Below, piece by piece: positions 1-48,343 of a DNA stretch of 64,000 nucleotides. The stretch comes from a virus. Its lineage: Duplodnaviria > Caudoviricetes. The DNA is taken from positions 8,635 to 72,634 of the IMG/VR virus record IMGVR_UViG_3300037484_000333, one strand, 5' to 3'. The notes beneath the pieces were generated by a model that was given only the letters and a program-made list of their open reading frames with translations, was not told where the DNA came from and did no database searches. Numbering within the stretch: position 1 is the first letter of the stretch; the number at the start of each line of letters is the position of its first letter. Both the position numbers and the translations under genes were made by a program.

Positions 1-3000
1 GATAGTCTAGTACGTAGAGAGGCCTTCGAGGGTGGCCGCTCTATCACCAATATAGCCATGCACGACTATATGGTCCAGGGCCAGTGGGACTACTGGCTGA
101 GGTGGTTCGCACCCTTCCAGTTTTGGTGGACTAGGTCACTATCCAAGATGCCCCTATACATGGCCGATAGGCCTGGGCTGTGGGCAACCTTCAATAGGAT
201 TATTCAGTCCACTGGTGAGAGGGGTGGTTTCTGGTGGGTCACGGACGAACAGCTTAAGGAGAACCCTGAGGTTGGAGAAGCCTTAATCAGATACCGTCAC
301 AAGATCGGCCTACCCTTCAGTGTCAACGTACCTGGTATGGGTGAGGCACAGCCTTACGTCAACCCTTGGAACTGGTTGCCACTATCCCCTATGATGCGGT
401 GGCAGCAAGATGACCAAATGGGTACCAACGTTGGTAAGTTGGCAAACATGGTAGACGGATATGGGTTTGGAATGACTCCACTCCTAGAGGAAGCCATGAT
501 TGGTATGGGGTGGTATGGTGAAGAAGCCAAGAGAAACCAAGGTCTATTCCTCACTAACTTCATTCCAGCACAGGTAGCTGAGATAGCGTTCAAGGGTTTC
601 TCAGGTGGAAAGCTCATACCTTGGAGTACTCCCCAAGACTTCTATGGTGCTAGGCTGGCCCTCCTAAACGACTACTCCAACGATACTGATATGACAGACC
701 AGGACTTCATGGACGCCCTGGCAGAGATAGACAAGTATGAAGGGCAGTTCATGTTTGGCATACCCAGCTTCAATAGCAAGTTCGCACGAGAAGCCTGGGT
801 AGAAGCTTCCAACTACCGAACTCTTAAGCAGGGGCTGTCTCTCGGAACCTCACTAAACGTCTCCCTTAAGTTTGAAGGGGAGACCAACAGTCGCGCAGCC
901 TTTAAGCGTATGGAAAAGAAGATACAAGACTTGAGGTTGAGGTTGGGAAGCGGAGCTATTGGAAGACGGGAATATGGTGACCTCTTAGAAGACGCCTTTG
1001 CCAGCGAACCAATGGGTAAGGTCTACTACTACTTTAGGGGAGACCCAGATGTCAATGCTGGTAGGGAAGACTATTACAGTACTGACGAGGAGATTAAGAA
1101 GAACTTCTTCAGTGAGGTCAGAGGCCTAGCGCCTGGAGACCCTAAGATTGATACCGCCTCTAGTAAGGCTTACGAAGACCGACAAGCTGCTCTACAGGAA
1201 ACTCTAGAGCAGTATAACATCACTGAAGATCAGCTGTTCGGTACCAGTATGAGATGGTGGGAACAGACCTACCCACGTATCTTAAAGGACATAGTTGGTG
1301 GACAGGCTACACCTGAAGACCTTGAGGAAGCTGCCAAAGTCATTACCTGGAGCCAAGACCTACTGGCGGTTCAGGCTGGGAACTTCCTACAGTATGGTAC
1401 TCCCATAGAAACTCCAGAAGAAGTTGGCAAGGCAATGGCCCTAGCCTACTGGGGTATGGATGAGGAAACCTTTAGGGTGGCTGGTGATATAGAGTGGGGA
1501 GACTTCTTTGATACCCAGGAACAGCTGGTTACTAACATGCCTCCAGGTGTTCAAGACCAAATCCTCAAGTTCATTAGAGACCCTGATAAGGTACCACCTG
1601 AGAAGGCTATCCAGGATGTGTATAACAGGCGTGTCCTTAGCCCGTACTATGACGCTAGGAACGCTGCAGTTGAGGGTATAGAAGACCCCGCTGAAGTGCA
1701 GGCTGCTATTGATAAGTTTGATAAAGAGTATGCCATGCCCACTACTGAGGAGTTTGTCCAGTGGGTATTGGATGATTACAACACCGCTTACTGGTTGAAT
1801 GACATACTGCCACACGTGTATACCAAGGAACAGATTGAGAATGCTATGGTTGGACTTGACCACCCAGCTAAACACCAAGCGTTCAGTTGGGAGAACAAGA
1901 TGGAAGTTCTTAAAGCCGATCCAACCAAGACTTTCAGGGCACCTAGTGGAGTTACGGTTGACCAGTTCAACGTTGGGCTCTTTCAGAAGGAACTCGACCA
2001 GCGTGATCAGTATATAGTTTTTAAGGAGATGGAACAACGTGGTGAAGCTGTCAATATGCGAGACCATGCCTACCCCTATGACGGTCAGTTCTTCAGTAAG
2101 GGACAGAAGGCGACTGAAGACTATCAGATAGTTGCCAAGCTCATCAATGAGAGAGACTCCATACTTAGGATAGCACCCAGACTAGCCGATGGTAGCATTG
2201 ACCCAGCTTGGTTAGGACTACGGAGAGAAGACGGTATGACGTGGGCTGGCAAGCTGACTAAGCTTGACTCTGATATAGCCAAGTACACGGAGGTACTTGG
2301 GGCAGATACTGAAGCAGCCCTCGGTGTTGGTGGAGGTACTGGCACAGCATTCACAGGCCCCACACCTGGTATAGCCCAAGTATCCAAGGTAGCACCAGTA
2401 ACTTATAAGACCCTTACAGACTTCTACGTTATGGGTGGAAGGGACTTCCTTGGTGACCTTAGCAAGCTGTGGCAAGGTCAGAAGACTATCAGTGAGAACG
2501 ATATGGTGCCACTAATCAGCCTGTATAATAACTTCTCGTTTGGAGCCACATCGTTTGACCAGTGGATCAACGTGACTCTACCTTCCATCTTCAACGCCCA
2601 ATCACTGGAGATGTTGGTACTACAAGAAACAAGCGCGTTGGGCAACCTACAGAAATGGTGGGCTGGCAAGACCGCCCTAACACCCGACACACAGGCAAAC
2701 CTATACGAGATATTCCAACTTACACACCCTGCAGGCGGTGACTTTGTAGCTTGGGTAACCAAGGAACTAAAGGACCAATTCACTAGCCGAGGCAAAGAAG
2801 TGTTTGATTGGCTGGGAGGCACATCTTGGCTACCACACTATGAAGTAGCTTGGGGTGGTGGAGAAATGTCCTCAGACGCTAGAGAGTTCGCCATCGACCT
2901 ATACTCCAAGATGCCTATGGGTGCGGACACCTTCACCGAGTGGATGTATGAAACACTACCCAGGTCTCTTGGGCAGCAGGTGGTTAAAGCCACTACTGAC

Positions 3001-4056
3001 CCTCAAACTGACACACTATACGGCATCCTCACTAGTGGGGGAGACGCCCTGTGGGACGACATCATCAACCATGTCAAGCTTGGTGAGCCCCTATCACCTA
3101 CTGCTGAGAAGACCCTTTGGACCCTATACAGCCAGTTTAGTGGCAACGCCAACAGCTTCACAGATTGGCTCAGTACTACCATTCCCAACCTGGTTAAGAC
3201 CAGTCCGGCAAGGGTTATAGGCCTGGTAGGTGTAGCAGACCTTGAGAACCTTGTAGACTTTTGGGCTGGATACAATACCCTCAAACCACAGGTCAACGAA
3301 CGCCTGTATAAGATGTGGGCATTGATTGGGTCCACTGAAGACTATGAGAAGTGGGTCAAAGAGACCCTCTTGAAAGACTACCAGAAGAACCAAGTGCAGA
3401 TATTCCTAGACTTGGGAGGGTCGGCTATGGTTGATGACTTGAGGGCTTACTGGGAGAAAGGTGCTCCACTGGCCAAACAGGTGATGGATAACCTCGATGA
3501 GCTGTGGCAGCGCACACCTATGGGTAGTGAAAGTACTGAGGACTGGATTGAGAATATCCTACCAGCAGAGTTCGGCAAGTTCTCAGGTGTCCAAATAGCT
3601 AAGCTGGACGCATGGTCTAGGTTTATGGCCTTAGGTGGTAAGGGTATTATGGGTTCTCTGGTCAAGTACTGGTACCAGGGTATCAAGCAACCTACCAATG
3701 ACTATGACAAGCTGAAGAAGATATACGCACAGATGCCGCTTGGGGCTGAGACTGTTACCGAGTGGAGAAATGAAACACTGCTTTCCCTCTATGAAGGTCA
3801 GGGTAGTAGGGCTGGATCAGGTACCCGCGTTACCTGGACTAACTTCACCTTTATGGCTTCCAAGGTACTGGGAAGAGACTACAAACCCATCATGTCAGAG
3901 CTTGTACGGTCCTTCCAGCGTGGTAAGAGACCTTCCGGTAATGTCATAAAGGCCGTTAACCGTGTTCTCAAACTTGGCATCTTCACTAAACAGTGGGGCA
4001 ATACTAACGAATTCTTAGACATCCTATACGCTGCGTGGTCTAACACGCGTGGATAG
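1..4056 (+). CDS. Giant virion-associated (probable internal/ejection) protein with C-terminal helical repeats; 5'-truncated by the window
   Basis: The frame is open from base 1 (DSLVRREAFEGGRSITNIA-M58). It lies directly upstream of scaffold and capsid. About 7-8 repeats of ~63 aa occur in the C-terminal 550 aa. Confidence 0.6.
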   Translation, partial: DSLVRREAFEGGRSITNIAMHDYMVQGQWDYWLRWFAPFQFWWTRSLSKMPLYMADRPGLWATFNRIIQSTGERGGFWWVTDEQLKENPEVGEALIRYRHKIGLPFSVNVPGMGEAQPYVNPWNWLPLSPMMRWQQDDQMGTNVGKLANMVDGYGFGMTPLLEEAMIGMGWYGEEAKRNQGLFLTNFIPAQVAEIAFKGFSGGKLIPWSTPQDFYGARLALLNDYSNDTDMTDQDFMDALAEIDKYEGQFMFGIPSFNSKFAREAWVEASNYRTLKQGLSLGTSLNVSLKFEGETNSRAAFKRMEKKIQDLRLRLGSGAIGRREYGDLLEDAFASEPMGKVYYYFRGDPDVNAGREDYYSTDEEIKKNFFSEVRGLAPGDPKIDTASSKAYEDRQAALQETLEQYNITEDQLFGTSMRWWEQTYPRILKDIVGGQATPEDLEEAAKVITWSQDLLAVQAGNFLQYGTPIETPEEVGKAMALAYWGMDEETFRVAGDIEWGDFFDTQEQLVTNMPPGVQDQILKFIRDPDKVPPEKAIQDVYNRRVLSPYYDARNAAVEGIEDPAEVQAAIDKFDKEYAMPTTEEFVQWVLDDYNTAYWLNDILPHVYTKEQIENAMVGLDHPAKHQAFSWENKMEVLKADPTKTFRAPSGVTVDQFNVGLFQKELDQRDQYIVFKEMEQRGEAVNMRDHAYPYDGQFFSKGQKATEDYQIVAKLINERDSILRIAPRLADGSIDPAWLGLRREDGMTWAGKLTKLDSDIAKYTEVLGADTEAALGVGGGTGTAFTGPTPGIAQVSKVAPVTYKTLTDFYVMGGRDFLGDLSKLWQGQKTISENDMVPLISLYNNFSFGATSFDQWINVTLPSIFNAQSLEMLVLQETSALGNLQKWWAGKTALTPDTQANLYEIFQLTHPAGGDFVAWVTKELKDQFTSRGKEVFDWLGGTSWLPHYEVAWGGGEMSSDAREFAIDLYSKMPMGADTFTEWMYETLPRSLGQQVVKATTDPQTDTLYGILTSGGDALWDDIINHVKLGEPLSPTAEKTLWTLYSQFSGNANSFTDWLSTTIPNLVKTSPARVIGLVGVADLENLVDFWAGYNTLKPQVNERLYKMWALIGSTEDYEKWVKETLLKDYQKNQVQIFLDLGGSAMVDDLRAYWEKGAPLAKQVMDNLDELWQRTPMGSESTEDWIENILPAEFGKFSGVQIAKLDAWSRFMALGGKGIMGSLVKYWYQGIKQPTNDYDKLKKIYAQMPLGAETVTEWRNETLLSLYEGQGSRAGSGTRVTWTNFTFMASKVLGRDYKPIMSELVRSFQRGKRPSGNVIKAVNRVLKLGIFTKQWGNTNEFLDILYAAWSNTRG

Positions 4057-4072
4057 TGATATAATTATAGGT
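4057..4072 (+). promoter_or_regulatory. Extended -10 promoter (TGATATAAT) for scaffold/capsid
   Basis: TGATATAATTATAGGT; near-identical to 55150-55165 and similar to 59210-59224. Confidence 0.55.
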
Positions 4073-4100
4073 AGGACTTTAACAGTCAAGGAGGTGAATA

Positions 4101-4859
4101 ATGCCGGACCAAGAAGTTAATCCAGGCACTGATGAGGATACTGATGATACGGTCGTGGAGGTTGACAAGTCAATCTTAAGCGATGACGGTACAGCAGTCA
4201 TCCCTGAGGTCTCCGAGGAGGAGAGCGAGGTTGAGACGCTAGAAGTAGCCGAACCCTTACTTGCGCAGCTTAGAGATAAGCTCGCCAAGCAGAAGGATGG
4301 TTATGAAGGGCGTATCGGCAAGTTGCTTGAGGCCAACGACAGGCGGCTTAAGGAAGTAAAGGACGAGTACTCAGGGTACGCGTCCGACCTTCAGAACTGG
4401 GCCAAACAGCAGGTAACATCCGTCCAGGACTACTACGAGAATGTCTTGGAGAACGAGTTGTCTGCAGAACGCTTGGCTGAACACTATCGCACAATGCGCC
4501 GCAAGGAAAAGGAAGCACGCGATCAGGTTCAGCGGATAGCAGTTCAACCAGCAGCGAAGGAGCTAGAGCCGTCTAAGGAGCCAGAGAGCACAGAATCTCC
4601 TGAACTACTGGAGCGCTTATCCAAACTGGAGGCCGAACTGAATGCCACCAAGAAACTGCTGGTTGAATCCGATAAGGAGACACACAGGGTTACTGGTGGT
4701 GGAACTGGTGGAGGCCCGAGAGGTGTTAAGCCAGTGACTGCCCGCGACGAACTGTTGCAAGACCTGCAGGCTCAAGCAGCCGAGGCCAAGCGTACAGGTA
4801 AAATGGGTGATGCGATTAGGCTGAAGGGTGAAATAGCGCTCCTTAAATCACAACGCTAA
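4101..4859 (+). CDS. Capsid scaffolding protein
   Basis: Acidic N-terminus, coiled-coil core, basic C-terminal helix; immediately upstream of the major capsid gene; SD AAGGAGG. Confidence 0.7.
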   Translation: MPDQEVNPGTDEDTDDTVVEVDKSILSDDGTAVIPEVSEEESEVETLEVAEPLLAQLRDKLAKQKDGYEGRIGKLLEANDRRLKEVKDEYSGYASDLQNWAKQQVTSVQDYYENVLENELSAERLAEHYRTMRRKEKEARDQVQRIAVQPAAKELEPSKEPESTESPELLERLSKLEAELNATKKLLVESDKETHRVTGGGTGGGPRGVKPVTARDELLQDLQAQAAEAKRTGKMGDAIRLKGEIALLKSQR

Positions 4860-4879
4860 TAAGAAAGGAGTGAAACAAC

Positions 4880-6124
4880 ATAGCACCTACAGTCCAAACA
4901 TCTGCTAGAACTTCGTATGGCGCATCTCCCAGTGGAGTCGTCAAGAAGCTTAATCTGGTTGAGTTTATCGACCTGCTTACGCCGACTGAGGTTCCTGTTC
5001 TGAGCTACCTTGGGTGGGCTAAGGAAGCTGGTCCTGCAGCTGGAGCTGACTCGCTCAGTATCCCGTGCACCCAGCAAATCCACCAGTGGCAGAACGACGA
5101 ACTGGTTCCGAGTGAGAGCACTATCGCGGCTGGAGAGACTGACAACCATGCTACCACTGGTAGCATTACCCTGTCGGTAGCTACCGGTACTGGTGTCTAC
5201 TTCCGGACTGGTGATGTCGTTATCGTTGATAGCGTCACCACCACTGAGAAGCCGAACACCTACCTGGTTACTGGGGTCTCTACTGATGCCCTGACCCTCC
5301 TGTTTGTTGCAGGAACTGCTACAGGCGAAACCGCCAGTCAGGTCATCAGGAAGATCGGACAGGCTTTCCCCGAAGGGACTGACATCGCCGACACAGGTGT
5401 TGCCCTTTACCGTAGCACGTCTATCAGCCAGACTGAGAATTATCCTCAGATTTGGTATGAAGTCGCTAAGGTTACAGGCAGCCTTCTGTCTACCGAGGTC
5501 TACGGTATCTCTGACCAGCTGGGCTACCAGGTCGAGAAGAAATTCAAGGAACTGGTAATTCAGATGGAGGGAGCCTTCATCTACGGACAGCGGCACGCCA
5601 CCCTTAACTCTGATCGCTACACTGCTGGAGGTCTTGCCTACTTTGTGCGGGACAACGCTACCAACGCCACTAACGGCCTTTACCTGACAGCGGCTGGTGC
5701 GGCCCTCACTGAGAGCATGTTCAATACCCTACTGGAGAACGTTTGGAAGCAGGGCGGCAAGCCCGACACTTGTTTCGTTAACAGCACCCAGAAGCGGTAC
5801 ATGAACAGCTGGCTAACCCCCTACGTTCGGACAGAACGAGATAACCGCGTAGCTGGCATCTTGACTTCCCAGTACGAATCGGACTTCGGGACTATCAACA
5901 TTGTGCTTGACCGCAATGTTCGACAGTCCGACCTGATCATATGCTCGAAGGACAAGCTGGGTATCGGGCCTCTCAAGGGCAACGGTAAGGACAGGAGTTT
6001 CTTCTTGGAGACTCTGCCCAAGACCGGAGACCACGAACGGGCTCAGATCATCGGTGAGTACACCTTTGAAGTTCGTAACAACACCCAGGCTCACGGCTGG
6101 TACGCATTCTTGGCTACATCTTAA
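4880..6124 (+). CDS. Major capsid protein, DUF5309/SU10-like, 414 aa, predicted ATA start
   Basis: SD AAGGAG, 9 nt, then ATA GCA CCT; in-frame TGA at 4871 and no ATG/GTG/TTG until 5564. Motifs FIDLLTPTEVPVLSYLG, HQWQNDEL, MEGAFIYG, RYTAGGL, LPKTGDHERAQIIGEYTFEVRN. Confidence 0.85.
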   Translation: MAPTVQTSARTSYGASPSGVVKKLNLVEFIDLLTPTEVPVLSYLGWAKEAGPAAGADSLSIPCTQQIHQWQNDELVPSESTIAAGETDNHATTGSITLSVATGTGVYFRTGDVVIVDSVTTTEKPNTYLVTGVSTDALTLLFVAGTATGETASQVIRKIGQAFPEGTDIADTGVALYRSTSISQTENYPQIWYEVAKVTGSLLSTEVYGISDQLGYQVEKKFKELVIQMEGAFIYGQRHATLNSDRYTAGGLAYFVRDNATNATNGLYLTAAGAALTESMFNTLLENVWKQGGKPDTCFVNSTQKRYMNSWLTPYVRTERDNRVAGILTSQYESDFGTINIVLDRNVRQSDLIICSKDKLGIGPLKGNGKDRSFFLETLPKTGDHERAQIIGEYTFEVRNNTQAHGWYAFLATS

Positions 6125-39119: not shown

Positions 39120-39743
39120 CTATCTAGGCCAGCAGGACCACTCCCATTGCCGACCTACACTAACAAACCACGCTGCCGCTTCCCAAGCCACTGTCCTGTT
39201 ACATGGGTCGGCAGCGGCAAAGGGTGTGGTAGCCCAGGTGCTCGGCATAAATTGAAATGGACCTAACTCACCTGAGCTACCTACCTTACATTCCTCATAT
39301 TGGTGGCGGCTCTCGCACCACTCGACATACCATAGGGTGTCAAGAAACTGTTCTACATTATACTTAGAAACCGCAACTTGCGCTAATCTTGGGGGAGTCT
39401 CCCCGTTGTTCGGGATTGGATGTTGTCCTCCCACCCCTGAAGGTACCCCGCCTTGTACCACTCCTTCAGGACTTCCTCCAACTTCTCCCTGTCCTTGTAC
39501 CACGGTAGCGGGTTCAGCCGACGCCACCATAATGCTATCACTTGCGGCAATGAGATCAACTGTCGTAAGAGGCACATGGTTTATACTCCGAACAAGATCA
39601 AAAGGTTGAGCCATAAGAACACTGCGATCAACTTCGTTAAGAAGTCTATCATAGTCCTCCCTACTATCTACCTGCAGGCTAACCGCCGAACACCCTATAG
39701 CTATGGCTATGAGTATTGTGGCTATCAGCGGTAGGAGCCTCAG
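39120..39743 (-). CDS. Secreted/lipoprotein lytic transglycosylase (SLT/lysozyme-like), predicted CTG start
   Basis: VEWCES...GELGPFQFMPSTW...W.CW. The extension adds MRLLPLIATILIAIAIGC; CTG overlaps the upstream TGA (CTGA), 7 nt after GGAGG. Confidence 0.75.
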   Translation of the reverse strand: MRLLPLIATILIAIAIGCSAVSLQVDSREDYDRLLNEVDRSVLMAQPFDLVRSINHVPLTTVDLIAASDSIMVASAEPATVVQGQGEVGGSPEGVVQGGVPSGVGGQHPIPNNGETPPRLAQVAVSKYNVEQFLDTLWYVEWCESRHQYEECKVGSSGELGPFQFMPSTWATTPFAAADPCNRTVAWEAAAWFVSVGRQWEWSCWPR

Positions 39744-39922
39744 GCTCGTTCCTCCACTGTTAGGTTCTTCTTCACTGCTTGGAAACCTATCTGAATGAGG
39801 TTAGCTTTGCCACACTTGATACACTCGAAGTCTTCGACACCACTAGACTCAGCGTACCAGACTTCTCTATTCAGTTCCCCGCAGTAAGCGCACTCCAAGG
39901 CTAGTACAAACCTATCTCCCAT
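39740..39922 (-). CDS. Zn-ribbon protein
   Basis: CAYCG...CIKCG. Confidence 0.55.
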   Translation of the reverse strand: MGDRFVLALECAYCGELNREVWYAESSGVEDFECIKCGKANLIQIGFQAVKKNLTVEERA

Positions 39923-40130
39923 TAATTACCTCCTGTAACTCTTTCAACCTTCCCTCTATATCCACCCACCCACCGCCATACAACCCTTCAAACTTGGCTA
40001 CCTCTCCACACTTAACACATACTCCCTGGTTTGAACCCTCAGGGAGTACCCAATGGTGGGCAGGTAAACTATTACAGGGACAACTATCCCTATGACACTT
40101 AATGGTATCACACATCGCAGAAGTTCGCAT
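39912..40130 (-). CDS. Cys/His-rich hypothetical protein
   Basis: ATG just downstream of the promoter; CDT.KCH..C.C...HHW...CVKCG. Confidence 0.45.
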   Translation of the reverse strand: MRTSAMCDTIKCHRDSCPCNSLPAHHWVLPEGSNQGVCVKCGEVAKFEGLYGGGWVDIEGRLKELQEVINGR

Positions 40131-40139
40131 AGTATTCCT

Positions 40140-40169
40140 ATTATAAGGTAATAAGTCCAGTGGTGTCAA
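40140..40169 (-). promoter_or_regulatory. Sigma70-type promoter
   Basis: TTGACA-18-TATAAT. Confidence 0.6.
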
Positions 40170-40230
40170 GCCATTTCTGACCTGACACCACAAACGTCGT
40201 CAGCGCTGACGGAGGACCCGCGTAATAGGG

Positions 40231-40671
40231 TTAATCGCCTCCGATAATGCGCCTAGTGACGATGACGGTGGCTCCATCAGGTGCCTGGTCGTCGAGGTAG
40301 GCCTGGCGACTGTTCAGGCGGAGGTCACCATCGGCGTCGAGACCAGCGGCTTCCAAGGCGTCGCCGACAGTACCGTTATCCGGAATGGCGAACTCCCTGA
40401 CTTCTCCACCGACCTCTCCAACCTTCACGACCTTCTGCCCACCACGGGGCTGGGTCATGATCAGCACAGAGTCGCCGTTGCTCAGGGGGTGCCGGTCGCT
40501 ACTGATGCGCTCTTGCTGCCCCGCGTGGGTGACCCGTACCTCATCGTTGCCCCAAGATTCGCTGGCAGCCGAGAACAGGTCAGCCACCACAGAACCGGGC
40601 AATAGGGTATAGTTCTTCCGCTCACCACCGATGCGAGCGATAGCCACGTCGATCGTCGTCTCGTTGACCAC
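40231..40671 (-). CDS. Tandem di-ubiquitin-like (beta-grasp) precursor, ...PRGG|QK...IIGG|D
   Basis: Two alignable ~70-aa beta-grasp units, each ending GG; SD AAGGAG plus GTG at 40671; in an operon with E1/JAB/E2. Confidence 0.8.
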   Translation of the reverse strand: MVNETTIDVAIARIGGERKNYTLLPGSVVADLFSAASESWGNDEVRVTHAGQQERISSDRHPLSNGDSVLIMTQPRGGQKVVKVGEVGGEVREFAIPDNGTVGDALEAAGLDADGDLRLNSRQAYLDDQAPDGATVIVTRRIIGGD

Positions 40672-40719
40672 GATCCACTCCTTTCTGGTACTTTGCAGTA
40701 CCAACTAAACTAACAACTA

Positions 40720-41211
40720 CTATTGATGGCAGTTACAACTGCAATTGAAGCCATCTACACAATGGCAGGGGCAGTCGCAGGTATCGTCGTCGTAGCACCC
40801 ACACCTCTCACAGGTGGGCTCCTCTTCCTCCTCCTCTTCATCCTCGTCGTCAGTTGGGTTGGGAAGTTCTCCACGAGGTTCCAGACCATCCGACCGACCA
40901 CCACCTACTGGGAAGCTGGCTGAGTCTGCGTCAGTTCGATTCCACACCCTCAGCACGTCAAGATGACGCAGTAGGGTACCAGTACAGACGTACCGCCCAC
41001 CCACACTGAGACGGTCACCACTGTATAGGATGCCCAGCCTCTCCAGTATAGTGCTAATCCAGGCGTCCCGCCAAGGCATGACCAACTCTATAGTGGGCTG
41101 GTTCAGGCGCGCCACGTAGACTGTGATCATCCTATCGTCGTTGGGCCTATCGTTAGGCCTGTACTGCATGGCTGGACGGGCTGCAGTATAAGGTGCAGGA
41201 TCATTCGTCAT
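40720..41211 (-). CDS. Ubl-like domain plus acidic linker plus 10-Cys metal-binding tail
   Basis: ITVYVARLNQPTIEL...ISTILERLGI...LRHLDVLRV resembles the di-Ubl units; FPVGGG; DDEDEEEEEEE; CERCGC...CDCPCHC...CSCNCHQ. Confidence 0.55.
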   Translation of the reverse strand: MTNDPAPYTAARPAMQYRPNDRPNDDRMITVYVARLNQPTIELVMPWRDAWISTILERLGILYSGDRLSVGGRYVCTGTLLRHLDVLRVWNRTDADSASFPVGGGRSDGLEPRGELPNPTDDEDEEEEEEEPTCERCGCYDDDTCDCPCHCVDGFNCSCNCHQ

Positions 41212-41881
41212 TACCAACTCCCCATGAGTTGACTATGCTGCGAAGGGTCTTGAGATTCTGTATGTACTCTCCCCAACACTCCTCCTTCCTAGCGAACGCG
41301 GCTATCCTGCTGGTGATAACACCTCCAATCACAAAGGGACAGTAGATCACAGACGAGTTGGTACATGGCCTACCGTCCTTACCCTGGTCACCATATAGTG
41401 AGCCTTCATACTTGTCTACGTGGTCTGGGTCACAGGGATTGACTGCGTAGACCCTTAAGTCTTCCCCATCCATACGCCCATCGACGTACAGGGGGTAGTT
41501 AGGGTCATACTTCACAGCCTGCCAGATTTCACTCCTGACAGCCATTGAGTCAACCCCAGAGATGATGACCCCAGGTCGCAGTTTGGTATCAGGGAACCTC
41601 CCATCAACTGCCAGTATGTTGACTGATGATAGATGAGCCAGCTCACGCGCCAACAGAACTACCTTGAGTTCGCCGACTCCATCTGGTGGGTACAAGACCT
41701 GGTTAGGTACGTTGTGGGCCTCTACCCTGTCGAAGTCGATGACCATTAGGTCCTTTACACCCATCTTGGCGACTGCTAAGGCGGTAGGCGAACCTATGCC
41801 ACCTGCCCCGACTATGGTGACTGGAAAGTCGAGTAGGTCAACCTGGACTACGTCTTGTTGCCTCGAATAGTCTATTGCCAA
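41201..41881 (-). CDS. ThiF/MoeB/E1-like activating enzyme
   Basis: YSRQ, VGAGGIGS, DFDRVEAHNVPNQ, SGVDSM..R, VDGRM, candidate catalytic PCT. Confidence 0.9.
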   Translation of the reverse strand: MAIDYSRQQDVVQVDLLDFPVTIVGAGGIGSPTALAVAKMGVKDLMVIDFDRVEAHNVPNQVLYPPDGVGELKVVLLARELAHLSSVNILAVDGRFPDTKLRPGVIISGVDSMAVRSEIWQAVKYDPNYPLYVDGRMDGEDLRVYAVNPCDPDHVDKYEGSLYGDQGKDGRPCTNSSVIYCPFVIGGVITSRIAAFARKEECWGEYIQNLKTLRSIVNSWGVGNDE

Positions 41882-41891
41882 GTACTACCTC

Positions 41892-42710
41892 CTAATGTTT
41901 GTCAAGGAAGGTCTGAAACGGGTCGTCACTGTCACGTCGCTTACCCTTCTTGCCTTTGTTACGTGGGTTACCCCGCTTGTAGGCATCGGCCTTGCTAGTT
42001 GACCTATCTATGCGGATGACCTCTCCATCCACACAGTTAGCGGCCACTTTGGCTAGCGCAGCCTCCACGTCTCTGGCCTTACGGGTATTAGGGTGGAGGC
42101 CAGAGCTGTAGTCGTCCTTAGATACGTTAGCCGAAATACTCTTCCCAATCGGGCCAAAAGGGGTTTGAGGTATTACCACCTTCCGCTCCCTGACCTTCTG
42201 CTTGACCTCCTCGGCACACTCCTCGTCCACATCCATTGCGGGGTATAGAACAGTCAGGTCAAACTCTTCCTCGACGGCAGACGTACCGCCCAGGCATTTG
42301 GGTAGCGTGGCTATGCCGTATACCGATCCCTTCCAGTCGTTAGCCTTATTCCCTACCAGGTAGGCGAACCAAGGAACAGTCTGCCCTACCATTTGTTCCA
42401 TAGTGGTACGGTCTGTCTGGCTCCAGAAGCAGGCAGTGTGGGCGTGGCTATGCCACCAAAGGCGCAGCTCAGTAGGGTCACCGCCTTCCTCCATCCACTG
42501 CTGGATGTACTCGGCTATTGGAGTGGTATCTAGCTCAGTACCACCTGCACTACACTCCTGGTCAAATAGGACGACCTTGGTTATTACTAACCTTCCGTCT
42601 ATCTCCTTTACGTGGCCGAGGCCAGATACTTCCCCAGTGGCGTGCTTGATGTAGGATCGGAGCCTAGAGTATGGCTCCAACTCTATGTATACGTTGGCTT
42701 TGGTTGCCAA
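41892..42710 (-). CDS. JAB/MPN+ isopeptidase
   Basis: GEVSGLG...WWHSHAHTACFWSQTD matches E-xn-H-x-H-x7-S-x2-D. Confidence 0.9.
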   Translation of the reverse strand: MATKANVYIELEPYSRLRSYIKHATGEVSGLGHVKEIDGRLVITKVVLFDQECSAGGTELDTTPIAEYIQQWMEEGGDPTELRLWWHSHAHTACFWSQTDRTTMEQMVGQTVPWFAYLVGNKANDWKGSVYGIATLPKCLGGTSAVEEEFDLTVLYPAMDVDEECAEEVKQKVRERKVVIPQTPFGPIGKSISANVSKDDYSSGLHPNTRKARDVEAALAKVAANCVDGEVIRIDRSTSKADAYKRGNPRNKGKKGKRRDSDDPFQTFLDKH

Positions 42711-42721
42711 AACTTCGCCTC

Positions 42722-44170
42722 CTATCGAGTGACAGTAGTTACTGTAGTTCCCGCGTCTCCATTATGATATACAAACCCTGCTACTCGTTCAATGTCATCC
42801 CAACGCAGTGTCGTCCCAGTGTTGGGATCAACCGCCTCCGCAGGTTCGAGAGCAACTAACTCTTCCAACGCCTCGTCGTAGTCCATGACTGTTGGGGCTT
42901 TCCCTTCCTTCTTAGGTTCCACTCCCACAGGATTCCAGTGTGCGCGCAACCTAGTTATGTATATACCGTCATGTTCCTTCTCGTTGATGTGGTTGAGGAA
43001 CTTGACCAGGACTGCCAAGGCGGTAGGAAAGTCCCCCGCGCCTATCAGCTTGGTTACTGGAGTCTGTAGGTTGCCGAGACAGACGTATGCCCCACCATCA
43101 TAGACGTGAGGGTGTTGAATGTCGTTGTAGAAGCCTTCACTCGTACCCTTCATCACTTCCTTGGCCCGCTGGTTTATTATCCTGATGCGGCCATTGGTGC
43201 CAATAGTAATACGGAAGGCTCCAAGGTCCCACGTATCGCCGTCAGCCTCAACTATGATAGTGTGCGTTTCAGCCACCACTGCTGAACCAGCAATGACTAC
43301 GTTCTTTATACCCTCAACAGCCTTGAGACGGACAAACTCGTCCTTGAGTTCTTCTTCCTTCTTGTCTGGCTCCTCGTAAGCCCTGAGCTGGCGGATATAC
43401 TTGGCCTCGTCTTGCATCCTTCCAACTAGGGCTTCTTGGTAGGAAACTATGTCATTACGGGTAGACTGCAACTGGCCAACCAAATTCTGTTTCTGAGCCT
43501 CATACCCCTTAGTACGAAGTTCGATGTAGAGATTCTCATAGTCAGGAGGTGGAGGTGGAACAGCCACTGCCCTGTTTGACGGTAGCTGCCTGAGTAGTTC
43601 ATGCCACCACCAACCACTAATGCCAACCGCAAATAGGTACAGTACTCTACTATCAATGTAGGCAGCTACCACCTCACCATCTACCTTGATTAGGTGATAG
43701 TCATCGCCCCAGTTCTCAGGGTGGGTATAGGTAGGAGTTGTAGGCCTTCTAACGTTGTCCCGAAGCCTGTTAACACCCAATCCGGAGTCGACCATCACAG
43801 TCCAGCCCCTATGGGTGGACATGACCCCTCTAAAGTCGCTCCTATAGACGTTGAACGGACGTCCAAAGTATGGAGCCCACAAACCCAGCCAACGACGTAT
43901 TGTTGGTAGGCTATACCCAACCCACCCTCGACCATGAGCCTGTACTGCATCTGGTATTGTTAAGGCTACTATACTACGGTTAGTGTTGTATTCAGGCCAA
44001 TACTCAAGGAGACGCAGACCTAACGACCTCCGAACTGCTGCCAAGTGCCTGTAACTAACGGCAATCCCTGTGTTGGCCCCTGCCGTCGCAGTCGGTCTAT
44101 CAGACGGATCACAAGGTATGTCAGGAAGGTCTGCAAGAGTGAAGCCCTCAAGGTAGTAGTAATCAGCCAT
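42722..44170 (-). CDS. Prokaryotic E2-like conjugating enzyme with long N-terminal/coiled-coil extension
   Basis: DLGAFRITI...QHPHVYDGGAYVCLGN...LAVLVKFL (UBC-like HPx-V...CL); SD GAGGAGG plus ATG at 44170. Confidence 0.75.
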   Translation of the reverse strand: MADYYYLEGFTLADLPDIPCDPSDRPTATAGANTGIAVSYRHLAAVRRSLGLRLLEYWPEYNTNRSIVALTIPDAVQAHGRGWVGYSLPTIRRWLGLWAPYFGRPFNVYRSDFRGVMSTHRGWTVMVDSGLGVNRLRDNVRRPTTPTYTHPENWGDDYHLIKVDGEVVAAYIDSRVLYLFAVGISGWWWHELLRQLPSNRAVAVPPPPPDYENLYIELRTKGYEAQKQNLVGQLQSTRNDIVSYQEALVGRMQDEAKYIRQLRAYEEPDKKEEELKDEFVRLKAVEGIKNVVIAGSAVVAETHTIIVEADGDTWDLGAFRITIGTNGRIRIINQRAKEVMKGTSEGFYNDIQHPHVYDGGAYVCLGNLQTPVTKLIGAGDFPTALAVLVKFLNHINEKEHDGIYITRLRAHWNPVGVEPKKEGKAPTVMDYDEALEELVALEPAEAVDPNTGTTLRWDDIERVAGFVYHNGDAGTTVTTVTR

Positions 44171-44462
44171 CAGTTTCCTCCTCGGAGTCCCAAACCATGA
44201 GGATTTCACCATTACTGGAGTGGCTATCCCACAGTTCGTCGGCAGACTTAACGAACTCGTCGGCTTCGGACGGGTCCTCCAAGCTGATAGCCATGTAGCA
44301 GTCTGAGACCCACTGGACGTAGTCTTCCTCGTTCATTAAGATTACCATCTTGGGAGATAGTGGTTCTAGGAATAACTCTTGCAGGGCTACCCTCAGCTCG
44401 TCACAGATCAACATGGAGTCTGAAACCTGCCGCCATATGATTGAGGCTGATGCTACGTTCAC
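44163..44462 (-). CDS. Hypothetical acidic protein
   Basis: Coupled to the E2 gene. Confidence 0.4.
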   Translation of the reverse strand: MNVASASIIWRQVSDSMLICDELRVALQELFLEPLSPKMVILMNEEDYVQWVSDCYMAISLEDPSEADEFVKSADELWDSHSSNGEILMVWDSEEETDG

Positions 44463-46681: not shown

Positions 46682-48343
46682 CTACTCCTTACTGAAGTCT
46701 GAGATCAACTGTGGTGTGGCTGTATCAAACCCTACCACATCCAACATACCAGCGTCATTGGGGTCTGCCAGTGTGAAGCCGTTGGATGTCATAGCCACAA
46801 CCACCAGCTTAGCCGGTATCCCAGTCTTCTTGCGGTACAGTTGGAGTGCCTGGAATGGGTGGAGGTCGCCAGCCCAGGTCTCGTCATCAGTGTAGATCAC
46901 GAAGGTGTCAACCTCAATACCTTCCTTAGCTGCCCACACCATGGGCAACGCACAGTCAGTTCCACCAAAGTTCTGGTCACTGGTCTTCTTCATGGCTGAT
47001 ACCAAGGTATCTTTGGCTGTGATGCCGAGGTTCTTGAAGGTTGTAGAGAACCCCATAGTGTAGTAGTTGGGTTCCGTCCTAGCGGTTACTAATGCCATAG
47101 CGGTCGCACCACGTGCTGGTGTCAGACTTGGTATGCCTGCTATTTCACCCCAAGCCATAGAGCCTGACACGTCCAGGGCCAGCAATGTACGCTTACCCGT
47201 AGGCTCCACATTCCCAAAGGCTAGGTAGAACGCATGGTCTAGGGCGTCTACTATCTGAGGTATAGGCTTCCACTCCAGCTTCCCGCGCTCACCATGACCT
47301 TGGCTGTAAGTACCTAGCGCGGCTAACACAGCTACCGGGTGGATGCGTGCGGCCTTAATAGCCTCTTGGTTGGTGAGTCGGTCAACCACTATCTTCGCGT
47401 CTTCAGACATTGGCTTGAGACAACCATTGGCTGTCATGCGGCCAAGGTTACGAAGAGTGGCCGTCATTGGCAGGTTGGGTAGAAGGGCTGACCATACTGC
47501 TGGGTGCTTGAGTTCCTCAGTTGGGATCATCTCCCAGGTTACTACCTTGGAGTGGGCGTTGATGAGCATCTTGGTCGCCGCTTCACCCTTGACCTGTTGC
47601 AAGGCCTCAAAGGCTATGATAACCTCAGGCCACTCACTGCCCCACACTTCCTTGTATGTGCTGACCACCCCCTTACGGTCAACCGTCCGCAGGCCATACG
47701 CTATGCTATCATCCAGGTGTCTGCACGTGACCCAACGATACAATGCGTTGTAGTTGGCCATAGGGGTAGAAGGGTGAGCAAGACGCAGCAAGTCTCTGTG
47801 AGACCACCCACCACGCTGCTGATACTTGCATAGCTGGTAGGCTAGGTCATTGGGGTTATGCATACCATACCAGTGTTGGATAGCCTTACGCAGTACGCTA
47901 CCCCAACCCCTGAGGTTCTTGCAACACTCAGCGAACTGGAAGAGGTGAGTACCTATACGGCAAACGTGAGGGAGAGCTTCAGAGGCGGCACGCTTGGTTG
48001 GAAGGTCACCGAAGCTGATGCACATGGCGAGTGCGAAGATAGCCGGGTCGTTCTTAGGTGCTCGACCTGACTGGCTGATCTCAACTATACGGTTGACAGT
48101 ACGGGGTCCATCAGCCTTGATACAACGCAGTACGGCCTCGGCATTCTCAATTGTGAGCTTTTGGGCTGATGCGTAGTAGGTTCCACCTTCGGAACCCAGA
48201 ATGAGGAAGCGGTCTAGCCTGATCCAGTCATCAACGGGGAAGACGTAGCCTCCAGCATCGTTGACGACCTGGTCAGTGCGACCTGGTACGGGGGTTGATT
48301 GAGGGGTTTGCTTGATGGAGTAGTGCTCGGAGTATAGAGACAA
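46682..48343 (-). CDS. rsr: Ro60/Rsr TROVE-domain RNA-binding protein
   Basis: QVVNDAGGYVF..DDWIRLDRFLILGSEGGTYY, RAPKNDPAIFALA, KYQQRGGWSHRDLLRLAHP, vWA DVSGSM, GGTDCALPM, YTDDETW. Confidence 0.95.
   Translation of the reverse strand: MSLYSEHYSIKQTPQSTPVPGRTDQVVNDAGGYVFPVDDWIRLDRFLILGSEGGTYYASAQKLTIENAEAVLRCIKADGPRTVNRIVEISQSGRAPKNDPAIFALAMCISFGDLPTKRAASEALPHVCRIGTHLFQFAECCKNLRGWGSVLRKAIQHWYGMHNPNDLAYQLCKYQQRGGWSHRDLLRLAHPSTPMANYNALYRWVTCRHLDDSIAYGLRTVDRKGVVSTYKEVWGSEWPEVIIAFEALQQVKGEAATKMLINAHSKVVTWEMIPTEELKHPAVWSALLPNLPMTATLRNLGRMTANGCLKPMSEDAKIVVDRLTNQEAIKAARIHPVAVLAALGTYSQGHGERGKLEWKPIPQIVDALDHAFYLAFGNVEPTGKRTLLALDVSGSMAWGEIAGIPSLTPARGATAMALVTARTEPNYYTMGFSTTFKNLGITAKDTLVSAMKKTSDQNFGGTDCALPMVWAAKEGIEVDTFVIYTDDETWAGDLHPFQALQLYRKKTGIPAKLVVVAMTSNGFTLADPNDAGMLDVVGFDTATPQLISDFSKE

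Follow-up and report, generated by a model that had tools for sequence, protein, structure and literature searches.

The window, i.e. the whole stretch of 64,000 nucleotides analysed here, belongs to a 72.6-kb IMG/VR virus record that has direct terminal repeats and codes also for terminase, portal, DNA polymerase and helicase, which together confirm that the cassette described below is of phage origin. Between positions 40231 and 44170 five genes are found on the minus strand, with gaps or overlaps of at most 17 nt between all of them. A preliminary description, made from the sequence, had read these genes as components of ubiquitin-like (Ubl) conjugation; its five open reading frames are indeed all present on this strand with the motifs it gave, and chance is excluded as the source of the gene and motif assignments. 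The features of the locus are the following:

40231-44170, minus strand: five-gene operon (E2, JAB, E1, Ubl-Cys, di-Ubl) of tightly packed ORFs
42722-44212, minus strand: E2-like ORF as open frame (496 aa), or 42722..44170 from Met15 (482 aa), with variable N-terminus, coiled coil and UBC core
42923..43366, minus strand: UBC (E2) catalytic core, residues 283-430, with profile and structure matches to E2s
43106-43114, minus strand: HPH motif (residues 367-369) within the UBC core
43079-43081, minus strand: candidate catalytic Cys378, within HPHV..VCLGN
41892..42710, minus strand: JAB/JAMM metalloprotease, 272 aa, with JAMM motif; Pfam Prok-JAB 23.7 bits
42630-42632, minus strand: JAB E27, a JAMM residue
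42411-42452, minus strand: JAB HSHx7Sx2D, the JAMM zinc-site motif
41201..41881, minus strand: minimal E1 (ThiF/MoeB-type adenylating enzyme), 226 aa; ThiF E 6e-20
41792-41809, minus strand: E1 GAGGIG, a Rossmann GxGxxG motif
41363-41365, minus strand: E1 candidate catalytic Cys173 (RPCT), a conserved Cys
40720..41217, minus strand: 'Ubl-Cys' protein, 165 aa, with small N-terminal domain, acidic linker and tail with 10 Cys and 2 His
40231..40704, minus strand: tandem di-Ubl precursor, probable start GTG at 40671, ending IIGGD
about 40438-40647, minus strand: di-Ubl unit 1, ending RGG; Ubl family HMM 18 bits
40237-40434, minus strand: di-Ubl unit 2, ending IIGG; Ubl family HMM 63 bits
40140..40169, minus strand: promoter-like site TTGACA-18-TATAAT, a 12/12 match to the sigma-70 consensus and a consensus match only

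The promoter-like site sits just past the di-Ubl stop, and the operon probably ends there on its 3' side.

For the E2-like protein, the start at 44170 favoured in the preliminary description is likely the correct one, because the closest homologue (P0002) aligns from Met15; the source's own gene call starts at Met131. The N-terminal 220 residues are common only to P0002 and are poorly modelled by AlphaFold, and residues 225-430 have pLDDT values of 85-97, with a long coiled coil at about residues 225-297 of the 496-aa frame. A search of 1.8 billion representatives returned 406 relatives at E≤1e-3, and the domain profile of this family (A5) matches 130 E2 chains in the PDB with the whole domain covered, UBE2A being matched with E 4.2e-5. 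In the profile alignment HPH pairs with HPN, the Asn being replaced by His in the phage family, and Cys88 of UBE2A and Cys86 of UbcH7 stand opposite the invariant Cys; indeed, no variation is seen at the residues H, P, H, G, C, G and N across 93 sequences of the family. Structural comparisons point to the same assignment, as the top Foldseek matches of the model are all E2s (probability 0.98-0.99) and the best PDB matches obtained with VIA are E2s as well (Z 7.0-7.2, rmsd about 4 Å, 115-121 residues, the matched span being chain residues 2-142 or 9-150). A structural Z of about 7 is middling when taken alone, and the model has six strands versus four in UBC; an unbiased VIA-wide search also ranks E2s first. 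The UBC fold and the HPHV...VCLG active site proposed earlier are thus borne out by profile matches (E 4e-5), by a Cys within HPHV..VCLGN that is aligned with the catalytic Cys of solved E2s, and by the ranking of E2s in both structure searches. The window protein itself gives no match in Pfam (UQ_con included), PHROG or PADLOC, and UQ_con is matched by 8 of the 93 relatives, the best with E 1.6e-4. Ahead of the UBC core the relatives carry N-terminal extensions with a median of 215 aa and up to 642 aa, and at least two E2 genes lie beside one E1 in 8 of 128 non-redundant loci, features suggesting an enzyme designed to select its targets. In MAGs of CPR bacteria, E2-like genes of this family occur with neither an E1 nor a JAB next to them.

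The E1 matches Pfam ThiF (PF00899) with 71.9 bits (cut-off 28.1; E 6e-20) and phrog_15670 with E 1.8e-16. Its D111 is kept in 66/66 relatives and Cys173 in 65/66, which upholds the GAGGIG-containing E1/ThiF enzyme and the candidate PCT cysteine of the preliminary description, and the enzyme looks active. Matches in the PDB comprise ThiF, MccB, Uba4, MoeB and UBA5, of which the first four are the closest solved relatives, and in GenBank the phage E1s are labelled 'thiamine biosynthesis protein'. Both observations favour an alternative in which the E1 would thiocarboxylate or otherwise activate the Ubl, making it a sulfur carrier or an intermediate in biosynthesis, in the manner of ThiS/MoaD, CysO-Mec, QbsE-QbsD or MccB-like peptide adenylation, the 'E2' having another role. 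Also, JAB, E1 and a capped Ubl occur together in sulfur-carrier pathways (CysO/Mec, QbsE/QbsD), which counts for the same alternative. However, ThiG, MoaE, rhodanese and cysteine desulfurase gave no match in the whole 72.6-kb record, while control genomes did match, so that the earlier remark on missing sulfur-transfer genes, made for the neighbourhood, holds across the entire record. The E1 is moreover a single ThiF domain in which the Pfam search detected no rhodanese domain, and it is strictly syntenic with a UBC-type E2 bearing an invariant Cys at the catalytic position. We consider this alternative highly improbable.

The JAB protein scores slightly below the cut-off of the Pfam Prok-JAB model (23.7 versus 25 bits). 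The motif noticed initially, E27 together with HSHx7Sx2D, is found, all 84 of 84 relatives share its residues E27, H87, H89, S97 and D100, and the zinc site is intact. In most related loci the JAB gene is placed between E2 and E1.

The di-Ubl ends in GG, followed by a one-residue Asp cap and the stop. Unit 2 has an AF2 pLDDT of 97-98, and Foldseek relates the di-Ubl model to ISG15, linear di-ubiquitin, NEDD8 and SUMO (E 6e-5, probability 1.0, about 155 columns), in agreement with the GG-ended tandem Ubl recognised in the preliminary description, for which both the ISG15/di-ubiquitin match and the IIGGD end speak. Eukaryotic polyubiquitin and ISG15 precursors likewise consist of tandem ubiquitin-fold units, each ending in GG, and a protease strips their C-terminal blocking residue; the phage units differ in being divergent (63 versus 18 bits to the family HMM). 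Among 62 non-redundant relatives the Ubl ends in Gly plus 1-5 capping residues in 56 and in a bare Gly in one, so that the capped Gly appears as the rule in this family, which fits the need for a protease. JAB-less relatives whose Ubls still end in Gly-Ser exist, and JAB processing therefore cannot be a universal rule.

A distinct picture emerged for Ubl-Cys. Three beta-grasp-like domains had been counted at the locus, of which the two in the di-Ubl are supported, the N-terminal domain of Ubl-Cys being only weakly Ubl-like (Ubl HMM 8 bits; model pLDDT 50-70). The protein has no family match among Pfam, PHROG and PADLOC models, and its sole homologue, P0152 (41% identity), shares with it the N-terminal domain and the Cys-rich tail but has no GGG; since the FPVGGG site is missing there, Ubl-Cys is probably not a processed Ubl. 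In 59 of 152 relatives (39%) the E2 itself carries a fused Cys-rich module comparable to this tail, and a RING signature was looked for in the phage module and not detected. Ubl-Cys is probably a zinc-binding accessory or adaptor, a role which is a guess.

Well over a hundred contigs, from phages and metagenomes, carry this conserved set of components. The order (Ubl)-E2-JAB-E1-(Ubl), always co-oriented, is found in viral contigs including those of jumbo phages, and the four parts (Ubl, E2, JAB, E1) occur together in 54 loci. When only non-redundant loci that extend 3 kb or more downstream are considered, 37 of the 40 have an E1 and 32 a JAB, on the same strand. A short ThiF gene is found in 27 of 29 viral records, and wherever both genes were placed (20 records) they share the strand, being within about 3 kb of each other in 19. 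The cassette represents a conserved phage operon family, beyond a one-off; our literature search found no paper describing a phage Ubl-E2-JAB-E1 cassette. In cultured Xanthomonas jumbo phages it comprises a ThiF, an E2 of 892 aa and a Ubl whose very last residues are GG.

In the window phage and in other, apparently lytic, phages the operon lies within the replication/early gene block and not in accessory islands. In the present record it shares the strand of the replication genes and lies a long way from the structural block, and in cultured phages its neighbours are primase/UDG, exonuclease or topoisomerase genes. Given the location in this block, the operon most likely acts during infection, modifying proteins of the host or the phage for takeover or counter-defence, and is less likely to have a part in virion structure; the targets named in the preliminary description, defence or translation factors, are purely inferential. 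These findings weigh against another possibility, namely that virion or assembly proteins of the phage itself receive the Ubl for maturation or protection, for instance to pre-empt host Bil-type tagging or to cross-link structural proteins. Pairs of Ubl and JAB do participate in lambda/T1 tail assembly (Iyer et al. 2006, PMC1779556) and the tail fibre is a Bil target, but the distance from the structural block, the replication-gene strand and the flanking genes in cultured phages argue against it, and we hold it to be decidedly unlikely.

As judged from the sequences, the phage system differs from Bil, Bub and CBASS by the very features which define those systems. Bil (BilABCD; types I and II; class 6d of Iyer et al. 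2006) carries out bacterial ISG15-like anti-phage conjugation and shares all four parts with the phage system, in many cases also their order (Ubl, E2, JAB, E1); in both systems the Ubl may hold one, two or three beta-grasp domains and there is no dedicated E3, so that the E2 is presumed to choose the target. However, Bil resides in host defence islands, whereas the present system is phage-encoded, and the Bil E1 has an IAD-AAD-CYS architecture, whereas the phage E1 is a 226-aa single adenylation domain that the PADLOC BilD model matches with 20 bits, over the Rossmann part only. PADLOC gave no BilA, BilB or BilC match for the window proteins and no BilB among the 93 E2 relatives. The phage E2 differs further in having HPH, in matching eukaryote-type UBC profiles and no PADLOC Bil/CBASS model, and in its long coiled coil and, in many cases, an added Cys-rich module. 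The operon could still be a phage-carried Bil-like defence that excludes superinfecting competitors by tagging their structural proteins, and would then not serve the phage's own infection programme: the gene order equals that of BilA-B-C-D, variable E2 N-termini and tandem E2 paralogues fit an arms race, and the known prokaryotic Ubl conjugation systems are anti-phage. This we regard as unlikely, as apparently lytic phages carry the operon among their replication genes and not in accessory islands, and as it is conserved over very different viral contigs and has an E2, a JAB and a Ubl matched by no Bil or CBASS model.

Bub (6E/DUF6527) also combines E1, E2, Ubl and JAB-type parts and has multi-beta-grasp Ubls. 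Its own features are Tyr/Ser oxyesters, no catalytic cysteines and the DUF6527 serine protease, whereas in the phage family the E2 Cys never varies and 65/66 relatives have the E1 Cys173; moreover, Bub uses fusions (Ubl-E2, JAB-E1 or E2-E1), the phage genes are separate, and a Pfam search found no DUF6527 in any of the five operon proteins. Type II CBASS Cap2/Cap3 shares the E1 plus E2 chemistry with a JAB protease, and weak PADLOC matches of the E1 Rossmann part go to Cap2-type models; Cap2 is, however, an E2-E1 fusion that conjugates the CD-NTase and has no Ubl, unlike the separate phage E1 and E2 with a folded GG Ubl. The archaeal Caldiarchaeum Ub operon is described as comprising Ub, E1, E2, a small RING and an Rpn11-like JAB (PMC3082918, PMC5654768). 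Compared with that description only, the phage operon is alike in uniting a UBC-type E2, a JAB, a Ubl and a small Cys-rich zinc protein, and appears different in that its Cys-rich module has no detected RING signature and its E1 is of the minimal ThiF type.

We thus propose, with a probability of roughly 0.7, that the five genes encode a phage-encoded ubiquitin-like protein conjugation cascade. Fold and family assignments, the conservation of catalytic residues and that of the operon are what has been established, and the order of events is inferred. The JAB would cut the Asp cap off the di-Ubl, exposing its C-terminal Gly-Gly, and possibly also cut between the two units. The minimal ThiF-type E1, probably a homodimer, would adenylate the di-Ubl Gly and then form a thioester on Cys173, from which the Ubl would be handed to Cys378 of the UBC-type E2 and moved to a lysine of the target. 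The latter would be picked by the variable N-terminal region and the coiled coil of the E2, aided by a Cys-rich, probably zinc-binding module, putatively the separate Ubl-Cys protein here and an E2-fused part in many relatives. The JAB may also undo the modification.

A broader and rather doubtful extension is that phages of many lineages (jumbo phages, possibly also crAss-like and Flavobacterium phages) own a self-contained UBC-type ubiquitination whose E2 would be closer in profile to eukaryotic UBC enzymes than to any bacterial defence E2. In it, the Cys-rich module would be an E3-like, zinc-binding specificity factor, and host proteins would be tagged for takeover or for disarming defence.

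Prokaryotic Ubl conjugation (Bil, Bub, CBASS Cap2) has so far been understood as host immunity against phages. A phage-owned E1-E2-protease-Ubl cassette, if true, would mean that bacterial viruses also tag proteins, as many eukaryotic viruses do, and would open a search for the tagged targets. As cultured Xanthomonas jumbo phages hold a version of the cassette, the idea is directly testable. In addition, the E2 family, unannotated and absent from the models of Pfam, PHROG and PADLOC, aligns all the same with UBC enzymes of the eukaryotic type, a finding relevant to how ubiquitination originated; the broader extension, if true, would provide a viral counterpart of, and a possible evolutionary link to, eukaryote-type ubiquitination.

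The E2-like protein, which has no match in Pfam, PHROG or PADLOC, had been the weak point of the finding, and word-indexed homologue searches with it and with the di-Ubl protein, a two-unit precursor of a ubiquitin-like modifier (Ubl), returned nothing beyond the window's own proteins. An exhaustive HMMER search with the E2 yielded 406 relatives, nearly all over residues 225–430, which have the motif HPH[VI]xxxGx[PC]C[LF]GN in common; the residues H, P, H, G, C, G and N are invariant in a domain-only alignment of 93 sequences. In searches of the PDB the whole-protein profile was swamped by coiled-coil matches, so that the domain-only profile was used: it matched 130 solved E2 chains, with UBE2A at the top (E = 4.2e-5, a match covering the complete domain), HPH sitting on HPN and the invariant cysteine on the catalytic cysteine. 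Taken individually, 8 of the 93 family sequences match the Pfam model UQ_con, and none of the 93 matches the E2 model of Bil, a known bacterial system.

The AlphaFold2 model of this protein (pLDDT 85–97 at residues 225–430) shows a coiled coil of 70 residues and, after it, an alpha/beta domain, and the best Foldseek matches in the PDB are all E2 enzymes. Superposition with VIA-align results in a Z of 7.0–7.2 at about 4 Å over 115–121 residues, covering the entire ubiquitin-conjugating (UBC) domain, and a Foldseek-independent search of 48,161 representative chains places E2s first, the other matches being coiled coils. On its own a Z of about 7 would be weak; combined with a profile that matches solved E2s and an active site in register with theirs, it leads us to regard UBC homology of the domain as established. 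The N-terminal 220 residues lie outside the modelled part and are common to P0002, the closest homologue, only. Because P0002 aligns from there, the protein most likely starts at Met15 (position 44170, as in the preliminary description); the source gene call puts the start at Met131.

The operon consists of five co-oriented ORFs spanning 40231-44212 with gaps or overlaps of at most 17 nt, and every motif named in the preliminary description was found in them. The E1 is a 226-aa enzyme of the ThiF family (PF00899, E = 6e-20), which matches phrog_15670, a phage family without annotation, and has ThiF, MccB, Uba4, MoeB and UBA5 as solved relatives. The cysteine of its PCT motif, proposed earlier as catalytic, is Cys173 and is kept in 65 of 66 relatives, among which Asp111 is invariant. 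The JAB protein has a Pfam score slightly below the cut-off (23.7 versus 25 bits), and all 84 relatives examined keep its residues E27, H87, H89, S97 and D100. Sulfur-carrier partners, reported as missing near the operon, are missing from the whole 72.6-kb record.

The modifier end of the operon comprises two genes and the stops between them:

40720-41217, minus strand: Ubl-Cys, a 165-aa protein
40705-40719, minus strand: three stops, all TAG, in frame with both genes
40231-40704, minus strand: di-Ubl

Using an HMM of the Ubls from the related loci (68 positions), unit 2 of di-Ubl scores 63 bits and unit 1 scores 18 bits. Both proteins were folded as an artificial fusion in which the three in-frame TAG codons were read as Gly; unit 2 was modelled by AlphaFold2 at pLDDT 97–98, and the di-Ubl model matches ISG15, linear di-ubiquitin, the OASL tandem Ubl, NEDD8 and SUMO, with E down to 6e-5 and a probability of 1.0. 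Among 62 non-redundant relatives, the Ubl terminates in GG plus 1–5 residues in 31 and in a single Gly plus 1–2 residues in 25, and the window di-Ubl in GG plus one Asp. A capped C-terminal glycine is thus the rule in this family, consistent with a protease being required.

A distinct picture emerged for Ubl-Cys, which had been counted as a third Ubl. Its similarity to Ubls is marginal (8 bits with the family HMM) and its predicted model is poor; nothing was found for it in the ESM Atlas, and the word-indexed search gave one match, a homologue in which the N-terminal domain and the tail rich in Cys are conserved and the FPVGGG stretch is missing. We have therefore not counted it as a modifier, and FPVGGG, missing from the only homologue, is rejected as a cleavage site. 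In 59 of 152 unique relatives the E2 itself carries a fused Cys-rich module, with at least 6 Cys within 40 residues; P0002 and a Xanthomonas phage protein are among them. This suggests that Ubl-Cys may supply in trans a module belonging to the system. Because table 11 leaves the window's large genes uninterrupted, read-through of the TAG stops, which would join Ubl-Cys to di-Ubl, is rejected, and the in-frame stops are probably a coincidence.

The IMG/VR source record has 72,634 bases with direct terminal repeats and codes for a large terminase, a portal, a family-A DNA polymerase, a helicase and a Ro60-like protein. Structural genes occupy the plus strand; the minus strand carries the Ubl operon along with the replication-type genes. 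The large terminase is at most about 30% identical to that of any GenBank phage, and neither blastn nor tblastn gave a match to the region or to the E2 domain among GenBank phages. Two features flank the operon:

46682-48343, minus strand: Ro60/TROVE gene (phrog_850, E 6.6e-90), 2.5 kb upstream of the operon
40169-40140, minus strand: perfect sigma-70 consensus site, directly 3' of the di-Ubl stop

The consensus site probably marks the start of the next transcription unit; behind this putative promoter, and directly 3' of the operon, stand two small Cys-rich ORFs containing CxxC pairs (39740-40193, minus strand; 93 and 60 aa). We see no functional link between the operon and the Ro60 module, as just 2 of the 29 related viral records contain TROVE, in neither case next to the operon.

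Searches for related loci with the E1 or with P0002 found nothing, and a first DNA pattern of the E2 motif, with 6-residue spacing, had no match in IMG/VR. A degenerate DNA pattern of the motif identified 30 IMG/VR loci and at least 120 metagenome loci. A pattern match in Sphingobacterium (L002) is due to chance. Of 29 related viral records, 27 contain a short ThiF gene; wherever it and the E2 gene could both be placed (20 records), the two share a strand, within about 3 kb of each other in 19, usually with JAB in between. Iterated HMM searches of 174 loci found E2, JAB, E1 and Ubl together in 54 and E2, JAB and E1 in 45, with the genes on one strand throughout and arranged as [Ubl]-E2-JAB-E1-[Ubl]; where at least 3 kb of downstream sequence was available (40 non-redundant loci), E1 is present in 37 and JAB in 32. 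What has been demonstrated is this synteny, together with the predicted folds and the conserved catalytic residues. The E2 proteins reach 831 aa, varying mainly before the UBC core, and some carrier contigs are of 130–230 kb.

Tandem E2 genes occur in 8 of 128 loci. Two or three tandem E2 paralogues per single E1/JAB/Ubl set were noted at L015, L017, L022, L023, L036, L037, L042, L062 and L165, an arrangement that resembles one E1 serving several E2s. A JAB-less subtype, E2-E1-Ubl, was observed at L044, L057, L078, L094, L107, L111 and L113; every Ubl of this subtype closes with Gly-Ser, in many cases as ...ERPQGS, and is thus capped although the protease is missing.

Among cultured phages, the Xanthomonas/Erwinia jumbo phages, namely PhiXhv-12 and its relatives, carry a Ubl, a protein with the E2 domain and a ThiF. 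JAB-ThiF pairs also occur in crAss-like and Flavobacterium FpV4-type phages. The loci are:

L178, Xanthomonas phage PhiXhv-12 (PV764601.1), 1245-5121: genes for a 140-aa Ubl protein, an 892-aa protein and ThiF, in this order
L179, crAss-like cr85_1 (NC_055883.1), 2167-5151: JAB and short ThiF genes in the replication module
L177, Flavobacterium phage FpV4, 2108-5178: JAB and short ThiF genes in the replication module

In PhiXhv-12 the 140-aa protein has a C-terminal Ubl domain ending exactly in Gly-Gly, the 892-aa protein combines an E2 domain (E 4.9e-13) with a Cys-rich acidic tail, and no JAB was detected at the locus. An E2 or Ubl could not be demonstrated in the FpV4-type and crAss-like phages: the cr85_1 gene upstream of JAB is unsupported as a divergent E2 (hhalign probability 3%, despite an HSH...PCLG motif that recalls the E2 signature), and the FpV4 gene upstream of JAB-ThiF has no similarity to one. 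The E2-like gene is also found in two CPR bacterial MAGs. In Ca. Zambryskibacteria (L004/L006) the copy at L004 is apparently split (334 and 148 aa) and has NUDIX, bactofilin-like and OMP decarboxylase genes as neighbours but neither E1 nor JAB, and in Ca. Vogelbacteria (L003/L005) the locus is cut by the contig end.

The phage operon and Bil are alike in parts list and gene order, whereas their protein families and E1 architecture differ. None of the features of Bub (oxyesters, fusions, DUF6527) applies to the phage operon, and CBASS Cap2, unlike it, is an E2-E1 fusion without Ubl. We have found no published description of phage-encoded E2-JAB-E1-Ubl operons in a search of literature outside subscription; the nearest item is a report on Asgard viruses, with E1 homologues alone.

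The most likely mechanism is a classical Ubl conjugation cascade, in which JAB would uncap the Ubl, which would then pass to Cys173 of E1, to Cys378 of E2 and to a lysine of the target; we infer every chemical step, as well as the targets. Since the operon stands in replication or early gene blocks, we slightly prefer a role in infection, by host takeover or counter-defence, to one in virion maturation or in superinfection exclusion. PhiXhv-12 offers a tractable model system.
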